64,000 nucleotides of DNA, taken from IMG/VR virus record IMGVR_UViG_3300027852_000032, positions 64,001 to 128,000 of that record. One strand, given 5' to 3'. The number at the start of each line of letters is the position of its first letter. Within the stretch, counting starts at the first letter, position 1. A model generated the notes under the pieces. That model was not told where the DNA came from. It did no database searches and was given only the letters and a program-made list of their open reading frames with translations. Positions 43,738 to 62,887 of the stretch are shown in pieces. A program made the translations under genes and the position numbers. This DNA comes from a virus. Taxonomy: Duplodnaviria; Caudoviricetes.

Positions 43738-46700
43738 TTATTTCCTTTTTTCCAATAAACTCACTTTATTTACGAAGTTTTCAATCCCTTTTTGAAAAGG
43801 AATTGAATTGTCTTTTTTACTTTTCAAAACAAAAGAGGGATCGACGCACCAACAACACCAAGCCCCGATGCTTTCCACCCATTCTGTTTCCCCACTCATC
43901 TCTAAAATTCCCTCTTTTCGCCCTGTTAAAGAGTAAAGAGCCGTATCTCCGCAAGCAAGAATAATTCTGGATTGTATTTTTCTCGATTCTTCGTGCAACC
44001 AACGATGACACGAATCAATTTCAAAATGAGTTGGTTTTTTTGTTTGGCTCGGCCAGCAACGGCAACAATGGGTAATATGAAAAAACCTTCGAGAATAACC
44101 ATACTTTTTTAATTCTTTCCATAACAAATCTCCCGCCCGACCAACACCCCCTTTTTTCTCTTCGTCCTCAATTCTTCCCGGGAACCCTAACAGTATTATT
44201 GCATTATATACTCCCAAAGAAGATAAGATCGCTCTATTTTTTACATATTTTCTTAAATCACAATTATTGCAACGGAAAACCTTATCTTCAACCCTAAATC
44301 TTTTTCTTTTAATGAGGTTATCGGGAATTTCAGATGACTCAAGATTTAAACTTGCAAAATCAGGTAAATCCTTTAAAGAAATATTCTCCTCAAACAATTC
44401 TACTAACTGTGAATATTTTTCAATTTTACTTCCTTGCAAATCAATATGAGGGAAATATTTACTCAGAACAGATACAGGTAAAATCGCATCTATTTCATCA
44501 ACACATAAATCTAATAATATTTCATCAAATCGTGTGTTTGAAGTTTCTTTTACGACCTGACTTTTAAAAAAACCTTGGAGCCTATTTTTTCTAACAGGCT
44601 CTAAACACTTAGAGGCATTATTTTCCCCGATCCCATTAATTTCAATAAATGGGATATATAGGGTACCCCCTATAAACCTCCATTCTTTTGCATTTGAAAA
44701 ATTCCTTTTAGGGGTAATAATCATATACCCCTGTTGTCTGACCTCAGATAACAAAGAATTTTTATGTTTGTTTGGATCAGTTGCCTTTTCATTCCATTCT
44801 CCATATGTAAGGCTTGCAGCAAAAAATTCTTTTTCGTAATGTGTTTTAAGATATGCCGTTTGATACGCAATTAAAGCGTATGCAGTCGCATGACTTTTAT
44901 TAAACCCATAACTTGACCATTTTAAAAGACCCTCCCAAAACTCCTCCGCCTCCTTTTGGGAGAAAGTTTTCATCTTCCTGCACCCCTGCGAAAATTGCTC
45001 CCAAAACGGTTTAAACTCTTTTGGGTCTCTTTTTTTGCCGATGACCTTTCGAATTTTATCGGCTATTGATTCGCTCAGCCCTGCTACTCTAGAAATAACT
45101 TGCATAACTTGTTCTTGGTACACCAGCAATCCATATGTTTCTTTTGTTACCTCCTCATAAATAGGATGTAAAGGTTTCCATTTTTGCCCATGCTTTCTTT
45201 TTACATATTCTTCTGTCATTCCACTATCGGTCGGTCCTGGCCGAGCTAAAGCAATTCCTGCGACAATATCCATAAATGAATGTATTTCCATTTTTTTGCA
45301 AAGTTCGGTGCAGGAACGCCCCGACAATTGGAACATGCCTGAAGTTTTTCCAGATGTAATTTTATCAAAGGTTTCTTTATCTTCTATCGGAATTTTATCA
45401 AAAGAGAACTCAATTTGTTTGTAATCTTTATATTTTTCTTCGAACTCAACTTCCATAATTTTCAAAATCAAATAACGCCCTGTTACAGGATCTTGAAAAA
45501 GGCCAGTTGAACTACAATCATCGTTAATGAGTCGGCGGCATTCCGACAAAACGGAAAGGGTTGAAAGTCCAAGTATGTCTAATTTCATCAACCCCATGTA
45601 CTCGCTATCTTCCATATCCCAATTACAAACAATTCTATCATTTCTTTTGACCAAAACACATTTTCCTGCGGTCGTTAAATCCTCTTTTGAAACAACAACG
45701 GCGGCAGCATGGGCACCTGCACCTCTTATTTGCCCCTCCATTTTCAATATCAAGCGAACTACTTTCGGGTATTTTGCAGCGAAATATCTACCTTCCTCTG
45801 TATTATCGATGGAAGATTGGATAGCGCTACCCTCAATATGTTCTCCCTTTCTTATTGAGTTCGCGAAAAAATTGGTATCTTTTTGGGAAACCTCCATCAC
45901 CCTGCAAACATCTCTAATTGCCGCTCTGGACTGCATCCTCATAACTGTTGAAATACCACAGGTATTATTTTTTCCGTAAACCTCTTTTATTCGAAGAATG
46001 ACCTCTTTTCTATACCTCTTCTCAAAGTCAATATCAATATCAGGCCAGTCCCCTCGATCTTCAGAAATAAACCGGCTAAAAGACAGGCCGAACACAATTG
46101 GGTCAACTTGAGTGATTCCGAGAAGATAAGCGATAAGTGACCCCCCTACACTGCCTCTGCCCGGTCCGACCATTATCCCTTTTTTTCTCGACCAGTCAAT
46201 TAAATCGTGGACAATAAGGAAATATCTTTCAAACTTTTTCTCCGTAATTAATTTGAGCTCTTGGGAATATCTTTTTTGGTACTCAGCAGAAAAGACCTCT
46301 GTTCCAAATATTTTTAGATATCCTTGCGTACACAAATCACCTAACACTTTTTTTTCACTCTGCTTTTGAATTCCTGGAGGTTTTGGCAAAGATATTTCTT
46401 TTTCCGAAAGTTTAAATTTAGAACATTGTTCAGCAATCTTTATCGTGTTTTTCATTGCTTGAATCGCGGTATCTTTTGACCAATCTTTTTGATCTTCAAA
46501 AGCCTGTAACATCTCACCCGCTGTCCTCAAATGAAGACCTTTAAACCCAAAAGACCATCTTGCGGGATCTTTCCATTTCGCCCTTCTATTGATCGCGAGT
46601 AACATATCTTGTGATTCCCATTCATCTTCTTTTGTATAATGACAATCATTCGTCGCGATGAAAGGAATATTTTTGTATTTTTTAGCCAATTTCTTTATTT

Positions 46701-47232
46701 TACTATGAATGTCTTTTTGCGATGGAATATTATGTGGCATTATTTCAAAATAAACATCCGTTTTTTTATCCAATTCTTTTAACAGGTCTTCTGCCCCAGG
46801 CAAATTCAAGAATGATCCTGAACAAGCAGTAGAAATAATCAACCCCGACAAATCAGAATTCAAAAGCAGATTATAATCAATTCTGGGGGAATAATAAAAA
46901 CCGGATAAATTCGCTTCCGTCAAGAGAGAGCAAAGGGTTTTCCATCCGTCTTCGTTTGCAACAAACAAGCTGATGTGTCCTTTTTTTTCTTTTTGCTTAA
47001 TATGTCTGTCAGGAACGATATAGGCTTCACACCCTAAAACATGATTAATATTTTGTTTTTCGCATTCTTTTTGCCATTGCAAAAGGCCATCAATATTCCC
47101 ATGATTTGTTAACCCTATATATTGAAAACCAAGATCCTTTGCTTCCTTTATATATTTTTGCGAAGATCCGTACCCGTCAAGATGCGAATGCTCTGAGTGT
47201 AAATGCAAATGTGCAAAATCTTTGTTATTCAC
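43738..47232 (-). CDS. dnaE: DNA polymerase III alpha subunit fused to a C-terminal family-4 UDG-like domain
   Basis: PHP motif HLHLHSEHS.LDG; GPGRGS.GGS; PDIDID; KLDILG; YQEQVM; YGFNKSHA. C-terminal CNNC...CCRC.P...C domain. Confidence 0.93.
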   Translation of the reverse strand: MNNKDFAHLHLHSEHSHLDGYGSSQKYIKEAKDLGFQYIGLTNHGNIDGLLQWQKECEKQNINHVLGCEAYIVPDRHIKQKEKKGHISLFVANEDGWKTLCSLLTEANLSGFYYSPRIDYNLLLNSDLSGLIISTACSGSFLNLPGAEDLLKELDKKTDVYFEIMPHNIPSQKDIHSKIKKLAKKYKNIPFIATNDCHYTKEDEWESQDMLLAINRRAKWKDPARWSFGFKGLHLRTAGEMLQAFEDQKDWSKDTAIQAMKNTIKIAEQCSKFKLSEKEISLPKPPGIQKQSEKKVLGDLCTQGYLKIFGTEVFSAEYQKRYSQELKLITEKKFERYFLIVHDLIDWSRKKGIMVGPGRGSVGGSLIAYLLGITQVDPIVFGLSFSRFISEDRGDWPDIDIDFEKRYRKEVILRIKEVYGKNNTCGISTVMRMQSRAAIRDVCRVMEVSQKDTNFFANSIRKGEHIEGSAIQSSIDNTEEGRYFAAKYPKVVRLILKMEGQIRGAGAHAAAVVVSKEDLTTAGKCVLVKRNDRIVCNWDMEDSEYMGLMKLDILGLSTLSVLSECRRLINDDCSSTGLFQDPVTGRYLILKIMEVEFEEKYKDYKQIEFSFDKIPIEDKETFDKITSGKTSGMFQLSGRSCTELCKKMEIHSFMDIVAGIALARPGPTDSGMTEEYVKRKHGQKWKPLHPIYEEVTKETYGLLVYQEQVMQVISRVAGLSESIADKIRKVIGKKRDPKEFKPFWEQFSQGCRKMKTFSQKEAEEFWEGLLKWSSYGFNKSHATAYALIAYQTAYLKTHYEKEFFAASLTYGEWNEKATDPNKHKNSLLSEVRQQGYMIITPKRNFSNAKEWRFIGGTLYIPFIEINGIGENNASKCLEPVRKNRLQGFFKSQVVKETSNTRFDEILLDLCVDEIDAILPVSVLSKYFPHIDLQGSKIEKYSQLVELFEENISLKDLPDFASLNLESSEIPDNLIKRKRFRVEDKVFRCNNCDLRKYVKNRAILSSLGVYNAIILLGFPGRIEDEEKKGGVGRAGDLLWKELKKYGYSRRFFHITHCCRCWPSQTKKPTHFEIDSCHRWLHEESRKIQSRIILACGDTALYSLTGRKEGILEMSGETEWVESIGAWCCWCVDPSFVLKSKKDNSIPFQKGIENFVNKVSLLEKRK

Positions 47233-47259: not shown

Positions 47260-48279
47260 TTAAGAAGACAAACAAAGGGCATGTTCAAAACCTTTCCCTG
47301 TAAAAAGCAAGCGATCCCCTATAACCATAGATGTAGATTTACCCAATACCTCAACCAAAAATCCAGGGTGGGCTCTCACATCGATACCTTTACCTTTGTA
47401 ATTGACTTTGATCTCATCGGAAACAGAACCATGTTTCCCTTTCCCTGTACATACAATTTTCCCTTCCCCAATTTTTAAATCAACCACCCGATCCAAATCA
47501 AAATCAGCTATTACCAAAGAAGAAACTCTGTCGACCATCTCTCCAAAAGAAGAGGGAAGCTTTATTTTTTTTCCTTTCACAACAAAAAAATCATCTATAG
47601 CGGAGGGGTAAGGTTTCCCAGAGTAAGTTCTGCAAGAAAAAAAGGTTTTATCTTTATTAGAAAAATGTAACCATCCATCTGCACTTATAGCGACTTTACA
47701 AATATCATACCCTTTTAACTCTTTGGCGGAAATAGCAGGGAGTAAAAAAGAACCATCAAAAGAAGCTTTCATTTTCTGCTTTGTGGCTCTATAAGAATCG
47801 GAGGAAAAAACATATTTCCCGGAAATATTTAAGCAAGATAATTCGGGTATATTCATATTTTTAGAAACGGAAAAAAGCCCTAATTCAATAGCGGTATTAA
47901 AATCAGAGGGAAGGTCTTTCCAGTCAGAAGACTTATCTGCCGGCCTTTTAATTTTTACAATTTTAATCTCTTTATCAATTTTTATGGAGGCTTTTAATGT
48001 CTCTCCCGTAATAACAAAAGCATCGTCCGTCTGGTTAATTCCAATTTCTTTATCAACCATTTTCTTTATCAAGTTATAAAACTCTGAAGCTTTCACAGCG
48101 CCCATGAGACCTGTTTTGATTTCCTGAAAAATTGCGATGTCGTCGTTATAAGTTCTTATTGAGTTCTTTTCAAAAATAAAATGAGTAGACTGTTCAATAA
48201 TTTCATCATTACTTAATCCCGGTTTCACTTTATCTAAAACAGAAAGTAATTCGTCTCTCAATATGATCTTTTTTGGCAT
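47260..48279 (-). CDS. Sliding clamp (DnaN/beta-like)
   Basis: 339 aa; SSDSYR motif in the middle domain; next to DnaE and clamp loader. Confidence 0.75.
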   Translation of the reverse strand: MPKKIILRDELLSVLDKVKPGLSNDEIIEQSTHFIFEKNSIRTYNDDIAIFQEIKTGLMGAVKASEFYNLIKKMVDKEIGINQTDDAFVITGETLKASIKIDKEIKIVKIKRPADKSSDWKDLPSDFNTAIELGLFSVSKNMNIPELSCLNISGKYVFSSDSYRATKQKMKASFDGSFLLPAISAKELKGYDICKVAISADGWLHFSNKDKTFFSCRTYSGKPYPSAIDDFFVVKGKKIKLPSSFGEMVDRVSSLVIADFDLDRVVDLKIGEGKIVCTGKGKHGSVSDEIKVNYKGKGIDVRAHPGFLVEVLGKSTSMVIGDRLLFTGKGFEHALCLSS

Positions 48280-48280
48280 T

Positions 48281-49303
48281 TTACTTTTCCTTTTTCAATA
48301 ATTGTAAATAATGATCCCATGCGTCTTTTTGTGTTCCTTTTTTCAAAACATAATAATACGAAAACAGAAAAAGAACTTTTTTTGGATTTGCTCTTAATAT
48401 AGCTTTTTCAACAAAAGGAAGCGTGTGTCTACATACAGTCGCGAAAGCTATGTTATTTTTAACTTCCTTTTGAAGTTGAAGAAAATAAAAAATATTCCAC
48501 GCCGCCCTTTCTTTATAGCTTTTTCTCATCTCCTCAAAATCAAATCCGTAATCAGTGATGATTTGTTCTATCATTTTTTTCCATTCAAAAGGGCGCGCAT
48601 CGAACAACCTTTTGTTTTTGCCTTCCTCTTGAGGTATGTCGAAAAAAGATAAGGTTTTTCGAGAATCTTCGATCTTCTTTCGAGAAGAAATATTAATGAC
48701 TAAAGGGGTCGATTTCCAAACAAACTTTTTACTTTTGATAGCTCCAGGAACATAAATACCCCCGTACGCCGTTGATTGCCTCCATGACCCGCTATCAACA
48801 CTCTCCCAAGGGAAATTATTCATCAGCCTAAAAGACGTCGCTGCGTACCCATGGAACTTAACAAGGGGTTTTCCTTTAGAGTCACAAAGGATCTTCATAC
48901 ACCTCTTTAGCCATTCCGCTCTGACTGGGGTGATTTTATCATTTGCAGGAGAAATTCCTATAAACTTGGGTCCAAAATCCTTCAATTTTTGCAACCATTT
49001 GAAATCCTCTCCTTGATGGAAAATGTGCATCAGTTTATCTTTTGAAACTTTTTTTTTCAACATGTATTGATAGTTATCCCACCCTTTTTCAGCTGACCCC
49101 TCAATATCATCTTTCGTCAAAACTTTCTGCCCAAATACTCCGGGGATAACGTCTAAATTAGCAATATGAGATAACTGCCCTTGGTGTTCTTTTGCAAAAT
49201 CAATATAAGAGTCTATGTCAATTTCCACCCGCTTTGTCCAGGCTGTAAAAGCCCCCGAATCCAACATTAGTTCAACCTTACTTTTTGAAGGTGCTCGTGA
49301 CAT
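48281..49303 (-). CDS. dpdA: DpdA/TGT-like DNA-guanine transglycosylase
   Basis: LDSGAF, LDVIPG, FHQGE, FHGYA, SVDSGSW TGT-fold motifs; adjacent to que genes. Confidence 0.75.
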   Translation of the reverse strand: MSRAPSKSKVELMLDSGAFTAWTKRVEIDIDSYIDFAKEHQGQLSHIANLDVIPGVFGQKVLTKDDIEGSAEKGWDNYQYMLKKKVSKDKLMHIFHQGEDFKWLQKLKDFGPKFIGISPANDKITPVRAEWLKRCMKILCDSKGKPLVKFHGYAATSFRLMNNFPWESVDSGSWRQSTAYGGIYVPGAIKSKKFVWKSTPLVINISSRKKIEDSRKTLSFFDIPQEEGKNKRLFDARPFEWKKMIEQIITDYGFDFEEMRKSYKERAAWNIFYFLQLQKEVKNNIAFATVCRHTLPFVEKAILRANPKKVLFLFSYYYVLKKGTQKDAWDHYLQLLKKEK

Positions 49304-49682
49304 TTATTTTCACCCCTCCTCTCGCATTAAATTCACCCGTGACAGTTAATTCGATAGGGGAGCAAAGACGGACAAGATCATCCCTTATCAAGTTAACGAT
49401 AGTCTCCATAAAACCTTGATAATTTCTATAAGCGAAAAAGTACAATTTGAGGCTCTTTGACTCTATACAAAGTTTATCAGGTACATAATCAATTTTTATT
49501 GTCGCGAAATCAGGTTGCCCGGTTTTAGGACAACAACTGGTAAACTCCGGGAAAATAAGATTGACTTCATACCCATAACCTGTATACCTGTTTTCAAACG
49601 CCTCAAGAATCCCTTCCGGCTTTTCATATTCGTATTCAGTTCTTTCTGATCCTAAATGTTTTAGCTCTTGGCCTTCTTTCAT
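49278..49682 (-). CDS. queF: PreQ0 reductase QueF (unimodular)
   Basis: PEFTSCCPKTGQPDF, QueF motif ESKSLKLY, FNARGG. Confidence 0.92.
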   Translation of the reverse strand: MKEGQELKHLGSERTEYEYEKPEGILEAFENRYTGYGYEVNLIFPEFTSCCPKTGQPDFATIKIDYVPDKLCIESKSLKLYFFAYRNYQGFMETIVNLIRDDLVRLCSPIELTVTGEFNARGGVKINVTSTFKK

Positions 49683-50590
49683 TTTTTCATCCTCGCTATG
49701 AATTCATCTTTACACCCATCTTTATTCTCTGAGAAATACCCTGTAGCCGATATGACTTCAAAAGGACTATTGAACTTTTTTACTCCCCTCATTTCTTTGC
49801 ACAAATGCCTTGCACTCATGACTAATATCATTCCTTTTGAGTTGATCTTTTCGTCCAGGTGATTGACAATATCAAAAACAAGTCTTTCTGCTATTTGCAA
49901 TCTTGCTGAAAAGTAATCAACTACCCTTGCAATTTTACTGGCTCCAATTAACAAGTCAGAGGGAATATACCCGAAGCTATACTCACCAAAAAAGGGTAAC
50001 ATATGGTGCTCACAATATGAAAAGAAATACCCCTCATCCCTCAACATCGTGTCGTACTTGACTCCATCTGAACCATCGTTCGCGAAAACAGTCACTTTTG
50101 GAAGACAAGCAGGGTTATATCCCTTAAAGGTTTCTTTCCACATTTTAGTGACCCTTTTCGGGGTATCTTTTAATCCCGGGCGATTAGGGTTTTCCCCAAT
50201 TACCTGGATCATTCTGGTCACAGCATCCTCGGCCGGATTTTCTTTTGATTCTTTTTCCCAAAAAAACTCAACCCATCCATGCGCCATCTGGGCAAAAATA
50301 AACGGGTGCAAAACCAACTCGTTTTTTTTATACAAACAAGCAAAATCATTATTGGGGTATCTTTCTCTTGTTTCTCCCGAATCAACTATATCGTCAACAA
50401 CCAATGTATTTTTTGTAACATCTTTAGCACTGACTAAAGGTTTTTTTAACAAAGCCGATAATGCTAAAGCGACATAGACGCCCCCCCGAGGAACACCATA
50501 TATATTTGAGTATCTTAAATTTGCCGCTGAAATATTACTTGCCAAACAACCAACAAGATAATTGAATTTTTCCAGATTACAAACCTCCAT
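49679..50590 (-). CDS. folE: Phosphoribosyltransferase - GTP cyclohydrolase I fusion
   Basis: N-half: GVPRGG and VVDDIVDSGET (PRPP loop), F.WE. C-half: GL.DTPKRV, SYCEHHMLPF, SKIAR, RLQI.ERL, HLC..MRG. Confidence 0.92.
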   Translation of the reverse strand: MEVCNLEKFNYLVGCLASNISAANLRYSNIYGVPRGGVYVALALSALLKKPLVSAKDVTKNTLVVDDIVDSGETRERYPNNDFACLYKKNELVLHPFIFAQMAHGWVEFFWEKESKENPAEDAVTRMIQVIGENPNRPGLKDTPKRVTKMWKETFKGYNPACLPKVTVFANDGSDGVKYDTMLRDEGYFFSYCEHHMLPFFGEYSFGYIPSDLLIGASKIARVVDYFSARLQIAERLVFDIVNHLDEKINSKGMILVMSARHLCKEMRGVKKFNSPFEVISATGYFSENKDGCKDEFIARMKK

Positions 50591-51284
50591 TATTTTTTAC
50601 CCCCTCAAAATATAATCTTCGAACCAATGGGTCTTGTACCCCTGCTCTTGAAAAACCATCTTCCCTTAATTTGCAAGCAGGGCACTTGCCACATGGGGGA
50701 ACTTGCCCTTCGTAACAAGTATGACTATAAGCCAAAGCATCCATGCACCCAGGCAAAGATTTTGCCATTTCAACCGCTTCTTTTTTATCTTTATTCATTA
50801 ATGGGGTATGAATACAAAAGCCATTTCTCGAAGAACCAAAACCTCTATTCAACGTCTGTTGCAAAGAGGTAATTGATTCTTGTCTGCAATCAGGGTACCC
50901 AGAAGAATCAGTCTGACAAACGCCCGTCACAATACTTGATATTTGATGCTTATAAGCAAGGGCTGCGGCAATTGTTAAGAAAATAATGTTTCTCCCGGGA
51001 ACAAAAGATGCAGGTAAATCTTTATCTATTACATGAGGATCCGAGACCTCCCCGCCATCAACCAAAGCCGAATTGCCAACTTTTCGGAATAGATCTGTCT
51101 CAAAAAACCGATAAGGGACATTCGCCAGTTTCGCAATTTTTCTGGCGGACTCTATTTCTATCGCATGCCTTTGGCTGTAATAAATATTAAGAGCAAGAAC
51201 TTTCCCGAATATTCTTTTCGCCCAGAACAAACACGTCGTTGAATCTTGTCCACCAGATAAAAGAACAATTGCTTTTATACTCAT
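50577..51284 (-). CDS. queC: 7-cyano-7-deazaguanine synthase QueC
   Basis: LLSGGQDS, VPGRN, YPDCR, TCY.G...CGKCPAC..R. Confidence 0.95.
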   Translation of the reverse strand: MSIKAIVLLSGGQDSTTCLFWAKRIFGKVLALNIYYSQRHAIEIESARKIAKLANVPYRFFETDLFRKVGNSALVDGGEVSDPHVIDKDLPASFVPGRNIIFLTIAAALAYKHQISSIVTGVCQTDSSGYPDCRQESITSLQQTLNRGFGSSRNGFCIHTPLMNKDKKEAVEMAKSLPGCMDALAYSHTCYEGQVPPCGKCPACKLREDGFSRAGVQDPLVRRLYFEGVKNNGGL

Positions 51285-51292
51285 TTTAACTC

Positions 51293-51850
51293 CTATTTAC
51301 TTTCGCGAGGTTTTACTAATCTTCCAACTTCCTCCAAACACCGAACCACCTTTTTTACATCAGACAATAATGTCAAGATAGTGCTATCGGTACAGGTCAA
51401 GCCGTCTTCATCCAAATGCTTACGAATTTGATCTTTTGTAATTTTGTCGTTCGCGCAAATCAACTTACAAATTTTCGCTGTTACAGACACCTTTTTTTTG
51501 GGTTTGGATTTAGCGGCTGGGGTATTATTAGGATCAGGATCAGGGTCGGTATCAGGATCAGGATCAGGGTCAGTATCAGGATCAGAATCAGGATCAGGGT
51601 CGGAATCAGGGTCGGGATCAGGGGCGGGATCGGTATCAGGGGCTGGGGGAATATCAGCTCCAAGGCCAATCAAAACAGACCTCGTCTCATCAGAAAGATA
51701 ATCTCCTTCTTGAAGGGATTTGGCGGCTTCCAAAATATCTTTTCGAAGAGAAGCAACAGAAATTTTTCTCCCTGTTTTTATAGATTCTTCAAAAAAATCA
51801 CTTATTTCTTTTGCAGCTTCTTCTAATTGTTTTTTTGTAGCTCTTCTCAT
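51293..51850 (-). CDS. Two-domain hypothetical protein with (Asp-Pro)n linker
   Basis: Helical N-domain, ~40-aa DP repeat, possible winged-helix C-domain; GAGGG RBS. Confidence 0.65.
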   Translation of the reverse strand: MRRATKKQLEEAAKEISDFFEESIKTGRKISVASLRKDILEAAKSLQEGDYLSDETRSVLIGLGADIPPAPDTDPAPDPDPDSDPDPDSDPDTDPDPDPDTDPDPDPNNTPAAKSKPKKKVSVTAKICKLICANDKITKDQIRKHLDEDGLTCTDSTILTLLSDVKKVVRCLEEVGRLVKPRESK

Positions 51851-51855
51851 TGTTT

Positions 51856-52070
51856 CCCTCTTATATATTTATTTATTTTTAAGCCCCCAGTAAAGGGGGC
51901 GACAATAATTATATTCTATCTTATTCGTGTTTTATTATATTCTATCTTATTTGCGTTTTATTATATTTTGGCGATGTCTCAGTATCTCATTTTATCCCCC
52001 TCTTATATATTTATTTATTTTTAAGCCCCCAGTAAAGGGGGCGACAATAATTATACTCTGTCTTGTTCGT
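51856..52070. repeat. Direct repeat (~70 bp x2, offset 142 bp) containing a GCCCCC-AGTAAA-GGGGGC hairpin
   Basis: 51856-51928 is nearly identical to 51998-52070. Confidence 0.92.
51910..51990 (-). pseudogene. Internally deleted relic of the adjacent DUF262-like gene
   Basis: Starts ATGAGATACTGAGACAT versus ATGAGATACTCAGACAT; ends ACGAATAAGATAGAATATAA versus ACGAACAAGACAGAGTATAA. Confidence 0.7.
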
Positions 52071-52578
52071 CTTCCAAAAGGTTTCTTACCTGTTGAATCT
52101 CAAGAGCAGAATGAACTCTCCCACCTTCATTTAACTCAATGTACCATTTCAAAACATCAGCTTTTTCTGGAAGATTATCGATAAACCATTTGAACCGACA
52201 AGTCTTGGGCATTTTCCCTTTTATTTCACTGTAATAAGCAAGACAAAAAACAGGAAACTCATCTGCAAGAAAATCCCTAACCGCTGTTACTCTTTGAAGA
52301 CCATCAATAATTTGATACTGCACTTCTTGATCACCTATCCGCCCTGAACGATTACAAGAAACTCTATCAGCGTCAAGACCACCTTGAAGTTTATACTCTA
52401 CATATGCGATACTTTCTGCCTTTGTCCAAGTATTCTCTTTCAAAAAATCACGGCTGAGGTCACCTTCAATGGAAGAGTCTTCTATTATAGTAGAAATATG
52501 TTTTTCAAGATCTTCCCATTTAACATCACAAGAATGACGGCTGCTATTTTCAAATTTGTTTATGTCTGAGTATCTCAT
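52051..52578 (-). CDS. DUF262 / ParB-Srx-like domain protein
   Basis: WT......Y, IIDGLQRVTA, LNEGG motifs. Confidence 0.75.
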   Translation of the reverse strand: MRYSDINKFENSSRHSCDVKWEDLEKHISTIIEDSSIEGDLSRDFLKENTWTKAESIAYVEYKLQGGLDADRVSCNRSGRIGDQEVQYQIIDGLQRVTAVRDFLADEFPVFCLAYYSEIKGKMPKTCRFKWFIDNLPEKADVLKWYIELNEGGRVHSALEIQQVRNLLEDEQDRV

Positions 52579-52839: not shown

Positions 52840-53496
52840 TTATAAAAGCAAATTATTTTTAATTTCATCTACCTTGATCAACTTATGAATTTGAATATTT
52901 AAAACAATATCCTTACACCCATATTTAATCATCTCTTCGGCCAGCCACAAAGCGTTATTCTTTCCGCCATTCATCATGGGGCTTAAAGCGTAATTCGCTC
53001 TACAGGCATCTTTCTTCAAAATATCAATAAAATTAATAGAGCTAATAAAATCACAACGATCAATTATTACAAATTTAATCCAGTCTTTTTCTGTTAACCG
53101 CCTATGATTTTCTAAACACATATAATCAGGATTCGCTAATTTATAATCAAGAACCCACCCCAAATCGCTTGATTCAATTTCTGGAAAGGGAAGGCTCCCA
53201 TTTGTTTCTACCGAAACAACATTTTTTTTATAAAGCAAAGCCTCAATTAACTCGGCCGTCTCTCTTTGCAATAAAGGCTCCCCTCCTGTAATCGTAACTT
53301 TTCCTTTAGGGATGAGGTCAACAATTTGGGAAACAGACATCTCTTTTTTATTGGTCAATTTTCTTGCCTGGGGCGTATCGCAATAAGTACAATTTAAATT
53401 ACACCCTTGAAAACGAATAAAAGTTGTAAGAGCCCCTTGCCCCTTAAAGTTCACCTCTCCGTCAATACCCGTGAATATTTCATTTATATATAACAT
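52840..53496 (-). CDS. queE: 7-carboxy-7-deazaguanine synthase QueE (radical SAM)
   Basis: INEIF.GIDGE, FIRFQGCNLNCTYCDT, TGGEP, ETNG, QIHK. Confidence 0.93.
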   Translation of the reverse strand: MLYINEIFTGIDGEVNFKGQGALTTFIRFQGCNLNCTYCDTPQARKLTNKKEMSVSQIVDLIPKGKVTITGGEPLLQRETAELIEALLYKKNVVSVETNGSLPFPEIESSDLGWVLDYKLANPDYMCLENHRRLTEKDWIKFVIIDRCDFISSINFIDILKKDACRANYALSPMMNGGKNNALWLAEEMIKYGCKDIVLNIQIHKLIKVDEIKNNLLL

Positions 53497-53873
53497 TATT
53501 TTGAAAGCCCCTTCACCCATGTTGCATAATTAAAAGATGTTTCCCAAACTCTTACTTTGACTACAAAAACATCATGAGGCAAAAGTTTTTGGATAGCTTC
53601 TGAAAAACAAAGGGATAATACTTCAGCCGTTGGATTATGAAAAAAAACATTTAGGCAGGAATGATCATATGTATCTATAATACTTCTCTTCACGATTTCT
53701 TTTAAATTGTTAAAATCTATTATCATTCCCGCTTCTGGCCCTGTAGTTTTTATTTCTCCAGTCACAGTCACCTCAAGTTTAAAATTATGGCCATGGTCAT
53801 TTTTACATTTTCCTTCATGAGATGGGAGATAATGAGACGCTGCGAATTCAAAAATCTTAGTAACATTTACCAT
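53496..53873 (-). CDS. queD: 6-carboxytetrahydropterin synthase QueD
   Basis: FAASH, KC...HGH, GMIIDF, DH..LN, PTAE, WET. Confidence 0.95.
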   Translation of the reverse strand: MVNVTKIFEFAASHYLPSHEGKCKNDHGHNFKLEVTVTGEIKTTGPEAGMIIDFNNLKEIVKRSIIDTYDHSCLNVFFHNPTAEVLSLCFSEAIQKLLPHDVFVVKVRVWETSFNYATWVKGLSK

Positions 53874-53981
53874 TTTTTTTACTTCCTTTTTAGTCTGAGT
53901 TTTCTTAAGTTTTTTCAAGTATTTTTACTTACATTATATTATACAAAATCAATTTTCTTTTTTTAAGTATTTATCATTTTT

Positions 53982-62266: not shown

Positions 62267-62887
62267 GTGACAAACATAGTCAGTTTCAGCGGAGGAAAAG
62301 ATTCGACAGCCATGCTTTTAATGATGCTTGAGAAAAAAGAAAAAATTCACTCTGCTGTTCATTTTGAAACAGAAAGAGAGTTTCCTGAAATACTTTCTCA
62401 TATAGAAAAAATAACAAAGGAAGTAGACGTAAAAATCCAAAAGGTGAGATATTGGATAGATTTCGACTTTCTTGAAGACAGGTATGGAAGACCGCATCCG
62501 TCAGGTGGATGGTGCGCTGCGAGAAAGGCGAATGAGTGCAACAAGTATATGAGGTTAATGGTAAAAGATAATCCTAAGGCCGTCGAGTGCATAGGATTCG
62601 CATCAGATGAAAGAAATAGAGCTGAAAAATTATTGCTCTCGAAAAGTAAAAAATGGCCTCTTCGATTTCCATTAATCGAATGGGAAATAACCGAAAAAAT
62701 GGCTTTGGAATATTGCTACGACAAAGGTTATCTTTTCGATAACATTTATGATTGGATGCCGTCCAAACGGGTCAGCTGTTATGATTGCGTCAAACAGTCT
62801 GAAGCAGATTGGAACGCCATAAAGAAGTATCACCCTGAATTGTTAAAAGGTAAAAAATACATAGATTTCAAAAGGAAAAATAAATAA
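62267..62887 (+). CDS. PAPS-reductase-family (PP-loop) protein
   Basis: SFSGGKDS, GWC, GF..DE..R, RFPLIEW, RVSCYDC. Confidence 0.8.
   Translation: MTNIVSFSGGKDSTAMLLMMLEKKEKIHSAVHFETEREFPEILSHIEKITKEVDVKIQKVRYWIDFDFLEDRYGRPHPSGGWCAARKANECNKYMRLMVKDNPKAVECIGFASDERNRAEKLLLSKSKKWPLRFPLIEWEITEKMALEYCYDKGYLFDNIYDWMPSKRVSCYDCVKQSEADWNAIKKYHPELLKGKKYIDFKRKNK

Follow-up and report, generated by a model that had tools for sequence, protein, structure and literature searches.

The DNA stretch analysed here (the window) comprises 64,000 bp, bases 64001-128000 of the 136,909-bp IMG/VR record IMGVR_UViG_3300027852_000032, a metagenomic caudoviricete genome judged 96% complete. On its minus strand, it carries a gene in which a small phosphoribosyltransferase (PRT) domain is fused to GTP cyclohydrolase I (FolE), embedded in a gene set for the modification of DNA with 7-deazaguanine bases. 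Our results show that this fusion is almost confined to viruses and constitutes a conserved module of deazaguanine DNA modification. It is a virus-specific component that is not discussed in the papers searched, whose pathway schemes end at FolE-QueD-QueE-QueC(-QueF...) plus DpdA. The N-terminal domain is a Gpt-like PRT without flexible loop II, and we tentatively propose that it returns guanine to the GTP pool on which FolE draws. The fusion gene and its functional elements are as follows:

49679-50590, minus strand: PRT-FolE fusion gene, 303 amino acids, with 15 full-length homologues of ~300 amino acids in the protein collection
50599-50606, minus strand: Shine-Dalgarno-like sequence GAGGGGGT, located 8 nt 5' of the fusion ATG, as read from the sequence
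50243-50590, minus strand: loop-less Gpt/XGPRT-like (xanthine-guanine PRT-like) type I PRT domain, residues 1-116, assigned by profile comparison with the PDB, AlphaFold 2 (AF2) and Foldseek
50480-50500, minus strand: pyrophosphate (PPi) loop YGVPRGG, residues 31-37, with R35-G36-G37 equivalent to XGPRT R37-G38-G39 (S36-R37-G38-G39 loop)
50369-50401, minus strand: phosphoribosyl pyrophosphate (PRPP)/5'-phosphate loop VVDDIVDSGET, residues 64-74, with D66-D67 equivalent to XGPRT D88-D89 and D70 to D92
50255-50326, minus strand: purine-binding 'hood', from K89 through W106-V-E-F-F-W-E112, with K89 equivalent to XGPRT K115 and W106...E112 to W134-I-E-Q-P-W-D140
49697-50230, minus strand: FolE domain, residues 121-298 (PF01227, E = 1.2e-47; NF006826)
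FolE motifs, minus strand: CEHH (50003-50014), HLC (residues 262-264) and SKxxR (residues 218-222), all invariant columns in the FolE alignment (A1)

According to the list of open reading frames and the translation, the fusion is encoded by a single uninterrupted frame, with residues 1 to ~116 forming the PRT domain and residues 121-298 the FolE domain. At its start, the gene shares 14 nt with the end of queC, and at its stop, 4 nt with the beginning of queF. The claim of the original prediction that the PRT domain lies in frame with FolE is thus borne out by a 303-residue reading frame with its own Shine-Dalgarno-like sequence. It could be argued that this architecture is an artefact, reflecting either two separate genes joined by gene calling or assembly or an N-terminal extension that resembles a PRT by chance. 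The N-terminal part indeed falls below the cut-offs of general profile libraries, and some records, such as that of phage PaMx25, list two genes in this region. However, the frame is open throughout, the same architecture recurs in dozens of independent viral contigs as well as in cultured phages, and the profile and structure matches are highly significant, which rules out a gene-calling artefact. The N-terminal domain is, moreover, common to 15 other proteins of ~300 amino acids. In PaMx25 (JQ067084.3; L003, 5890-6789), the annotation comprises a FolE protein of 191 amino acids and an overlapping 'hypothetical protein' of 124 amino acids in another frame. The FolE frame is open further upstream, giving a 300-residue frame that contains the PRT domain, and the fusion has probably been mis-annotated in this record.

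In general libraries, the N-terminal domain reached 18.7 bits with PF00156, which is under the Pfam gathering threshold of 26.3, and 34 bits with its best NCBIfam match, the xanthine/guanine PRT model NF006613, failing the equivalog cut-off of 138; it also matched phrog_8995 ('phosphoribosyl transferase') with an E-value of 2e-8. Searches by tblastn with this domain alone retrieved only the immuto phages (E = 1e-3), a method that is too insensitive in this case and needs to be replaced by profiles. When compared with the PDB, a profile alignment of 62 homologous N-terminal domains (A2) matched Gpt/XGPRT-type purine PRTs from end to end, including those of P. horikoshii (1vdm, E = 1.3e-16), Yersinia (5xtk, E = 4.4e-15) and E. 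coli (1a95/1nul, E = 3.8e-14) as well as Sulfolobus GpT-2. The AF2 model of the domain, built from A2 (pLDDT 93.2, pTM 0.86), displays the alpha/beta core of the type I PRT fold, and Foldseek ranks hypoxanthine-guanine-xanthine PRTs (HGXPRTs) and XGPRTs highest among its PDB matches (TM-scores 0.70-0.81, probability 1.00), including complexes with GMP and guanine. The full-length AF2 model, by comparison, has a pTM of 0.48 and a low-confidence linker (residues ~100-130), so that the packing of the two domains is not confidently placed.

The spacing between the RGG and DD motifs amounts to 28 residues here and to a median of 27 residues (range 18-46) in the family, as opposed to 48 residues in XGPRT. 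In the alignments to 1vdm and 5xtk, a gap of ~20-25 residues falls exactly at the flexible loop II hairpin, which in XGPRT holds a Ser-Tyr dyad and R69. Of the earlier assignment to the type I PRTs, the fold has stood, as has the intact PRPP loop VVDDIVDSGET (residues 64-74, nt 50369-50401), whereas the enzyme is not complete, with the ~20-residue flexible loop II gone. Judging from profiles and models, the domain is best described as a loop-less Gpt-like PRT, not as a canonical Gpt.

Sequence conservation was assessed in 142 distinct domains (64 fused and 78 stand-alone; 27% mean identity in A2), with residue equivalences, in Yersinia/E. coli numbering, taken from a profile alignment that included 5xtk. 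Both loops that define the type I PRT fold are present. In the PPi loop, G37 is found in 100% of the domains, G36 in 97% and R35 in 87%, with lysine at the latter position in 6% more. The PRPP loop, whose S71-G-E-T74 segment aligns with XGPRT T93-G-G-T96, is almost invariant (D66 100%, D67 100%, D70 99%, S/T71 99%, G72 100%, T74 99%), and the hood is likewise conserved (K89 79%, with R in 7% more; W106 97%, W111 94%, E112 97%). The catalytic Asp, the O6-binding Lys and the stacking Trp of Gpt/XGPRT, roles played by D92, K115 and W134 in the XGPRT structures, are thus all present as D70, K89 and W106. The catalytic Asp contacts N7 of the purine in 6-oxopurine PRTs. This pattern of conservation points to selective pressure to retain the catalytic Asp and the capacity to bind purines and PRPP or nucleotides. 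The pocket, including D70, is unchanged across phages whose end products differ in their 7-substituents, from preQ0/G+ types and preQ1 (predicted for the window) to 7-amido-7-deazaguanine (ADG; CP220), 7-deazaguanine (DG; phiST) and fdPreQ1 (immuto) (end-product bases of the compared phages from PMC10516641). Its invariance fits a substrate common to these phages, such as guanine.

The FolE domain scored 162.1 bits with PF01227 (cut-off 27) and 163 bits with NF006826 (cut-off 162), but 157.4 bits with the equivalog model TIGR00063, under its cut-off of 181.6. Alignment A1 shows C193-E-H-H196, H262-L-C264, S218-K219...R222 and R268 to be invariant. As in E. coli FolE, the CEHH and HxC motifs are assumed to provide the Zn ligands and the catalytic His, and the S-K-x-x-R motif and the additional Arg to bind the triphosphate. 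On the basis of these residues, the FolE domain is intact. We also considered that it might use GMP directly, which would make the PRT and FolE reactions consecutive, but rejected this notion because the triphosphate residues S218, K219, R222 and R268 are invariant.

The original prediction treated the fusion as singular and proposed to determine its phyletic pattern. It proved to be widespread in phages, with the fused PRT domain found in 66 of the 80 best FolE relatives in IMG/VR, as opposed to a single one of the 80 best cellular relatives, identified with alignment A1 in 185,579 bacterial and archaeal genomes (one per species). This sole cellular case among the best 80, on a Thermoguttaceae metagenome-assembled contig (JAGBDD010000049.1; L188, 7884-8804), may represent a prophage or a mis-binned viral contig. 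Cultured phages with the fusion, in which the protein is labelled just 'GTP cyclohydrolase', are Vibrio phage VpKK5, Stenotrophomonas phage ply2008005c and the Pseudomonas PaMx25/NP1/Quinobequin-P09 group. When 1.84 billion representative proteins were searched exhaustively with the profile, 8,783 matches were obtained at E <= 1e-3, of which 3,915 had E <= 1e-10. The best 150 matches were mostly proteins of 108-170 amino acids, along with ~17 FolE fusions and one MazG fusion, and none of the best matches was fused to queC, queD, queE or queF. Among the representative proteins, P0134 is a MazG-miniPRT fusion, and P0036 (2299 amino acids, 16 matched stretches) was discarded as a false positive with Big_12 Ig-like repeats. 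A long frame in locus L077 has 233 residues ahead of the PRT domain, which matched no family and are probably not coded.

Many of the short matches are fragments of fusions at contig ends; others form a true stand-alone class, marked by a conserved tail that follows the FPWE motif. We sampled 80 IMG/VR loci around stand-alone members, 71 of which contain que genes within 10 kb (FolE in 62, QueE in 64, QueD in 58 and QueC in 45). A DpdA3-type transglycosylase is encoded at 39 and a DpdA of the window type at 6 of the 80 loci. At 41 loci, the stand-alone PRT gene lies immediately beside folE on the same strand (26 after and 15 before it). A MazG/PRA-PH-like gene was detected in 36 of 75 stand-alone loci (L088-L167), whereas the MazG-like gene of the immuto gp208 type was found in none of 60 fused-type loci. 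Pyrophosphohydrolases of the PRA-PH/MazG superfamily (gp208 family; L084, 10401-10925, in immuto) are frequent in DpdA3-type clusters. In a tree of the 142 domains, fused and stand-alone groups are intermixed; the best tree implies 4 changes between the two states, of which well-supported branches force just 1, given its poor resolution.

Profile searches of characterised deazaguanine phages identified the domain in Flavobacterium phage immuto 2-6A (as gp211, encoded immediately 5' of folE), Campylobacter phage CP220 (annotated as 'phosphoribosyl transferase', near a radical-SAM gene) and Cellulophaga phage phiST (CGPG_00045, beside a gene for a deoxynucleoside monophosphate (dNMP) kinase-like protein and one for ribonucleotide reductase (RNR)). 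In CP220 and phiST, the stand-alone PRT gene is located far from folE. All three phages have a DpdA3 and are reported to replace 100% of their G (PMC10516641). P-loop nucleotide-kinase-like genes flank or neighbour dpdA3 in CP220 (L169, 8862-11355), immuto 2-6A (L084, 12600-13124) and phiST (L185, 7665-9046; L187, 2424-4147), and genes for MazG-like proteins or HD phosphohydrolases are present in or near the cluster of each of them.

The fusion gene of the window is part of a block of minus-strand genes with the order queD, queE, two small ORFs, queC, PRT-folE, queF, dpdA, sliding clamp, dnaE and clamp loader:

53496-53918, minus strand: queD (PTPS, E = 4.6e-31)
52840-53520, minus strand: queE (Radical_SAM/Fer4_12)
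50577-51284, minus strand: queC, the upstream neighbour of the fusion gene (PF06508, E = 1e-67)
49278-49682, minus strand: queF, unimodular nitrile reductase (TIGR03139, 150.9 bits against 86.9; CPKTGQPD and ESKSLKLY motifs)
48281-49303, minus strand: dpdA-like gene for a DNA guanine transglycosylase (phrog_887, E = 1.4e-42; VpKK5 homologue with 27% identity, E = 6e-21)
47260-48279, minus strand: sliding clamp gene, directly downstream of dpdA (Pfam)
43738-47232, minus strand: gene for DnaE with a C-terminal domain resembling uracil-DNA glycosylase (UDG), beyond the clamp gene (Pfam)

The gene set for DpdA-type 7-deazaguanine modification is thus complete, with FolE, QueD, QueE, QueC, QueF and DpdA encoded together. 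Since QueF is a true unimodular nitrile reductase, the base predicted to be inserted is preQ1 (dPreQ1 in DNA). Searches of the 96%-complete phage genome for a guanylate kinase, an NMP kinase of the thymidylate kinase type and RNR found none, and MazG was represented by a sub-threshold match only. The DnaE polymerase contains PHP, NTPase and finger domains as well as a UDG-superfamily domain (residues 1018-1141; PF03167, E = 1.4e-11), and DnaE-type polymerases adjoin the cluster in many related IMG/VR loci, too. At the DNA level, the 12-kb block had no match among GenBank phages, which marks this phage as a new lineage. The two ORFs between queE and queC (51293-51850 and 52051-52578, minus strand) encode a 185-residue protein with an acidic, proline-rich repeat and a 175-residue protein that belongs to phrog_1583 and weakly resembles GmrSD_N/ParB; the related loci contained neither of them. 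Near the end of the window, a gene on the plus strand (62267-62887) encodes a member of the PAPS-reductase/PP-loop ATPase family (PF01507, E = 2.4e-13) with a weak match to QueC.

The reading that we tentatively favour, anticipated in the original prediction, is that the N-terminal domain represents a minimised 6-oxopurine (guanine-type) PRT of the Gpt/XGPRT lineage that refills the GTP used by FolE. It would convert free guanine and PRPP to GMP, with the guanine stemming from the base that DpdA expels from DNA upon each insertion of preQ1. The guanylate kinase (Gmk) and nucleoside diphosphate kinase (Ndk) of the host would then phosphorylate GMP to GTP, on which the FolE part of the fusion protein acts. 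The result would be a closed loop (G in DNA → guanine → GMP → GTP → dihydroneopterin triphosphate (H2NTP) → carboxytetrahydropterin (CPH4) → 7-carboxy-7-deazaguanine (CDG) → preQ0 → preQ1 → DNA) that replenishes the GTP burned by the pathway. At the same time, the removal of guanine would lessen its competition with preQ1 for re-insertion and thereby favour the insertion of preQ1, and fusion or adjacency to folE would have the entry module co-expressed at a one-to-one ratio. Based on homology, the conservation of residues and the linkage of genes, we infer catalytic activity of the domain in the absence of loop II, guanine as the substrate and DpdA as the source of this guanine. In support of this idea, the domain is linked or fused specifically to folE and not to the base-forming que genes, no further phage gene would be required, given that hosts make GMP in their normal metabolism, and all three phages with 100% replacement, in which the release of guanine is maximal, carry the module.

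Several observations weigh against guanine salvage, however. The flexible loop II hairpin (XGPRT S62-Y63...R69) is absent across the whole family, and mutagenesis of hypoxanthine-guanine PRT (HGPRT) indicates that loop II is important for catalysis. GMP must pass host Gmk and Ndk before it can serve FolE, and the PRT and FolE catalyse non-consecutive steps, so that the fusion cannot act by substrate channelling. Hosts, moreover, generally possess an Hpt or Gpt of their own. The profile did not find the domain in phages 9g, CAjan, Rosebush, Dp-1, nt-1, iggy and HVTV-1 in a search that included positive controls. These seven phages replace about 0.1% to 32% of their G (PMC6884629, PMC10516641, PMC10484667), with 9g, CAjan and others reaching 25-32% without the domain. 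Base exchange thus proceeds in its absence, and the module is an accessory rather than a requirement. The correlation with 100% replacement is fully confounded with the DpdA3 subtype, and phages with the fused form lie outside the measured set. Finally, base exchange alone does not account for the gene set of the three 100%-replacement phages, which looks nucleotide-level, and the MazG/PRA-PH-like genes and P-loop kinases that accompany the stand-alone form in DpdA3 phages point to nucleotide-level chemistry.

Such chemistry is at the heart of the second proposal in the original prediction, according to which the PRT converts deazapurines to nucleotides. In the manner of TubE and ToyH, the domain would transfer CDG, preQ0 or preQ1 to PRPP, yielding a 7-deaza-GMP analogue for pre-replicative incorporation or another nucleotide product. 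There is a precedent for this activity in a FolE/QueD/QueE context, with TubE using CDG and PRPP (PMC6112128) and an equivalent reaction of preQ0 proposed for ToyH (PMC6112128; bioRxiv 10.64898/2026.04.15.718813), and a route via modified dGTP has been proposed for Campylobacter phages (PMC6884629). The occurrence of the stand-alone form in all complete-replacement phages, its frequent association with MazG/PRA-PH-like genes, the MazG-miniPRT fusion, the kinase-like and RNR genes adjoining the phiST PRT gene and the P-loop kinases flanking DpdA3 in CP220 and immuto are all in line with this possibility, as is the ADG nucleoside reported from CP220-infected cells (PMC10516641). In the window, however, DpdA is present, and a PRT acting on the free base would compete with it; in CAjan, a relative without the PRT, DpdA is required for all modification (PMC6884629). 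Furthermore, this genome lacks the kinases, RNR and above-threshold MazG searched for, the fused class has no MazG-like gene of the gp208 type, the linkage is to folE, the first step, instead of to queE, queC or queF, which make the base, the catalytic Asp is near-invariant, and the pocket shows no co-variation with the 7-substituents. Nor did we find any link between the N-terminal domain and the odd DnaE, which the original prediction had thought to fit such a route. We therefore regard the conversion of deazapurines as rather unlikely here, while it stays a live minority reading for the family as a whole. In a more specific version, which we consider doubtful, the loop-less mini-PRT would act as a viral equivalent of TubE, transferring 7-deazaguanine to PRPP and starting a pre-replicative route at the nucleotide level that, in fused DpdA1-type phages, operates in parallel to base exchange.

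Alternatively, the domain may not be catalytic at all but act as a sensor or scaffold, with the PRT fold binding PRPP, GMP/GTP or (p)ppGpp and tuning FolE to the supply of guanine nucleotides, or aiding the assembly of the FolE decamer. PRT folds do serve as sensors, for instance in PurR and PyrR. The family-wide loss of loop II with retention of the ligand-binding loops, the presence of a ppGpp-bound PRT-like protein from N. gonorrhoeae (5vog) among the best structural matches, the specific fusion or adjacency to the GTP-consuming committed step and the dispensability of the domain in many deazaguanine phages would all be consistent with a role of this kind. We nevertheless deem it unlikely, because the near-invariant D70 and the conserved Arg and Gly residues of the PPi loop exceed the needs of nucleotide binding alone, the stand-alone gene is distant from folE in CP220 and phiST, and the full-length AF2 model provides no confident packing of the two domains. 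Guanine salvage thus remains our leading reading on the grounds of homology, conservation and linkage, tempered by the missing loop II, the need for host Gmk and Ndk and the dispensability of the domain in 9g and CAjan.

With 3,915 representative clusters at E <= 1e-10, phage contigs in which the module is fused or adjacent to the committed enzyme of the pathway are very numerous, and all characterised phages with complete replacement of G possess the module. If it does salvage guanine, these viruses would operate a closed cycle that transmutes the G already present in DNA into deazaguanine. By a rough estimate, millions of guanines would be involved for a genome of ~137 kb and a burst of ~100, an amount comparable to the GTP pool of the cell, and the removal of guanine would also drive base exchange. 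If deazaguanine nucleotides are made instead, the mechanism of complete replacement would need to be rethought; the combination of a viral TubE counterpart with MazG-like pyrophosphohydrolases and P-loop kinases would account for 100% replacement in phages of the CP220, phiST and immuto type. In either case, the family provides a natural experiment on whether a type I PRT can function in the absence of the catalytic loop. As a marker gene, moreover, the mini-PRT serves better than the annotation 'GTP cyclohydrolase' to pick out phages of this sort.

Published schemes of phage 7-deazaguanine modification (Hutinet 2019; Cui 2023) comprise FolE-QueD-QueE-QueC with or without QueF, Gat-QueC or ArcS, plus DpdA1-4, and contain no PRT, although CP220, phiST and immuto 2-6A each carry a gene annotated as 'phosphoribosyl transferase' that goes unmentioned in them. 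The words phosphoribosyl and PRPP are absent from the main texts of these two studies and of the iggy paper, and full-text literature searches for a combination of PRT with FolE or deazaguanine returned nothing relevant. The earlier statement that a PRT lies outside the canonical preQ0 pathway is accurate. In other respects, the locus conforms to known phage 7-deazaguanine clusters, with the full gene set including queF present, and resembles the Queuovirinae in gene order and in the linkage of dpdA, clamp and polymerase genes. Like the tubercidin and toyocamycin clusters with TubE and ToyH, it encodes a PRT together with FolE, QueD and QueE homologues. TubE differs, as compared by description only, in being a stand-alone protein of normal size (194 amino acids) from Streptomyces secondary metabolism, and its clusters are devoid of DpdA. 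With PRT-fold regulators and (p)ppGpp-binding PRTs (PurR, PyrR, HPRT/Gpt-ppGpp, 5VOG), the phage domain would share a PRT fold that binds PRPP or guanine nucleotides, but it has no DNA- or RNA-binding part, and a regulatory role would be hypothetical.

The closest likeness is to purine PRTs. The phage domain has the type I core, the SRGG-type PPi loop, the DD-x-x-D-[ST]-G-x-T loop and the O6 Lys of Gpt/XGPRT (1A95/1NUL/4JLS, 5XTK/6KP5), and it shares the W-[IVL]-x-[FY]-P-W-E hood motif, identical in style to that of 1VDM, with small archaeal purine PRTs (1VDM; S. solfataricus HGXPRT, 4Z1O/5BQO). Unlike Gpt/XGPRT, however, it is ~20 residues shorter between the PPi-loop helix and the PRPP loop, has a shorter helix after the PRPP loop, and is fused to or encoded beside FolE, almost exclusively in viruses.

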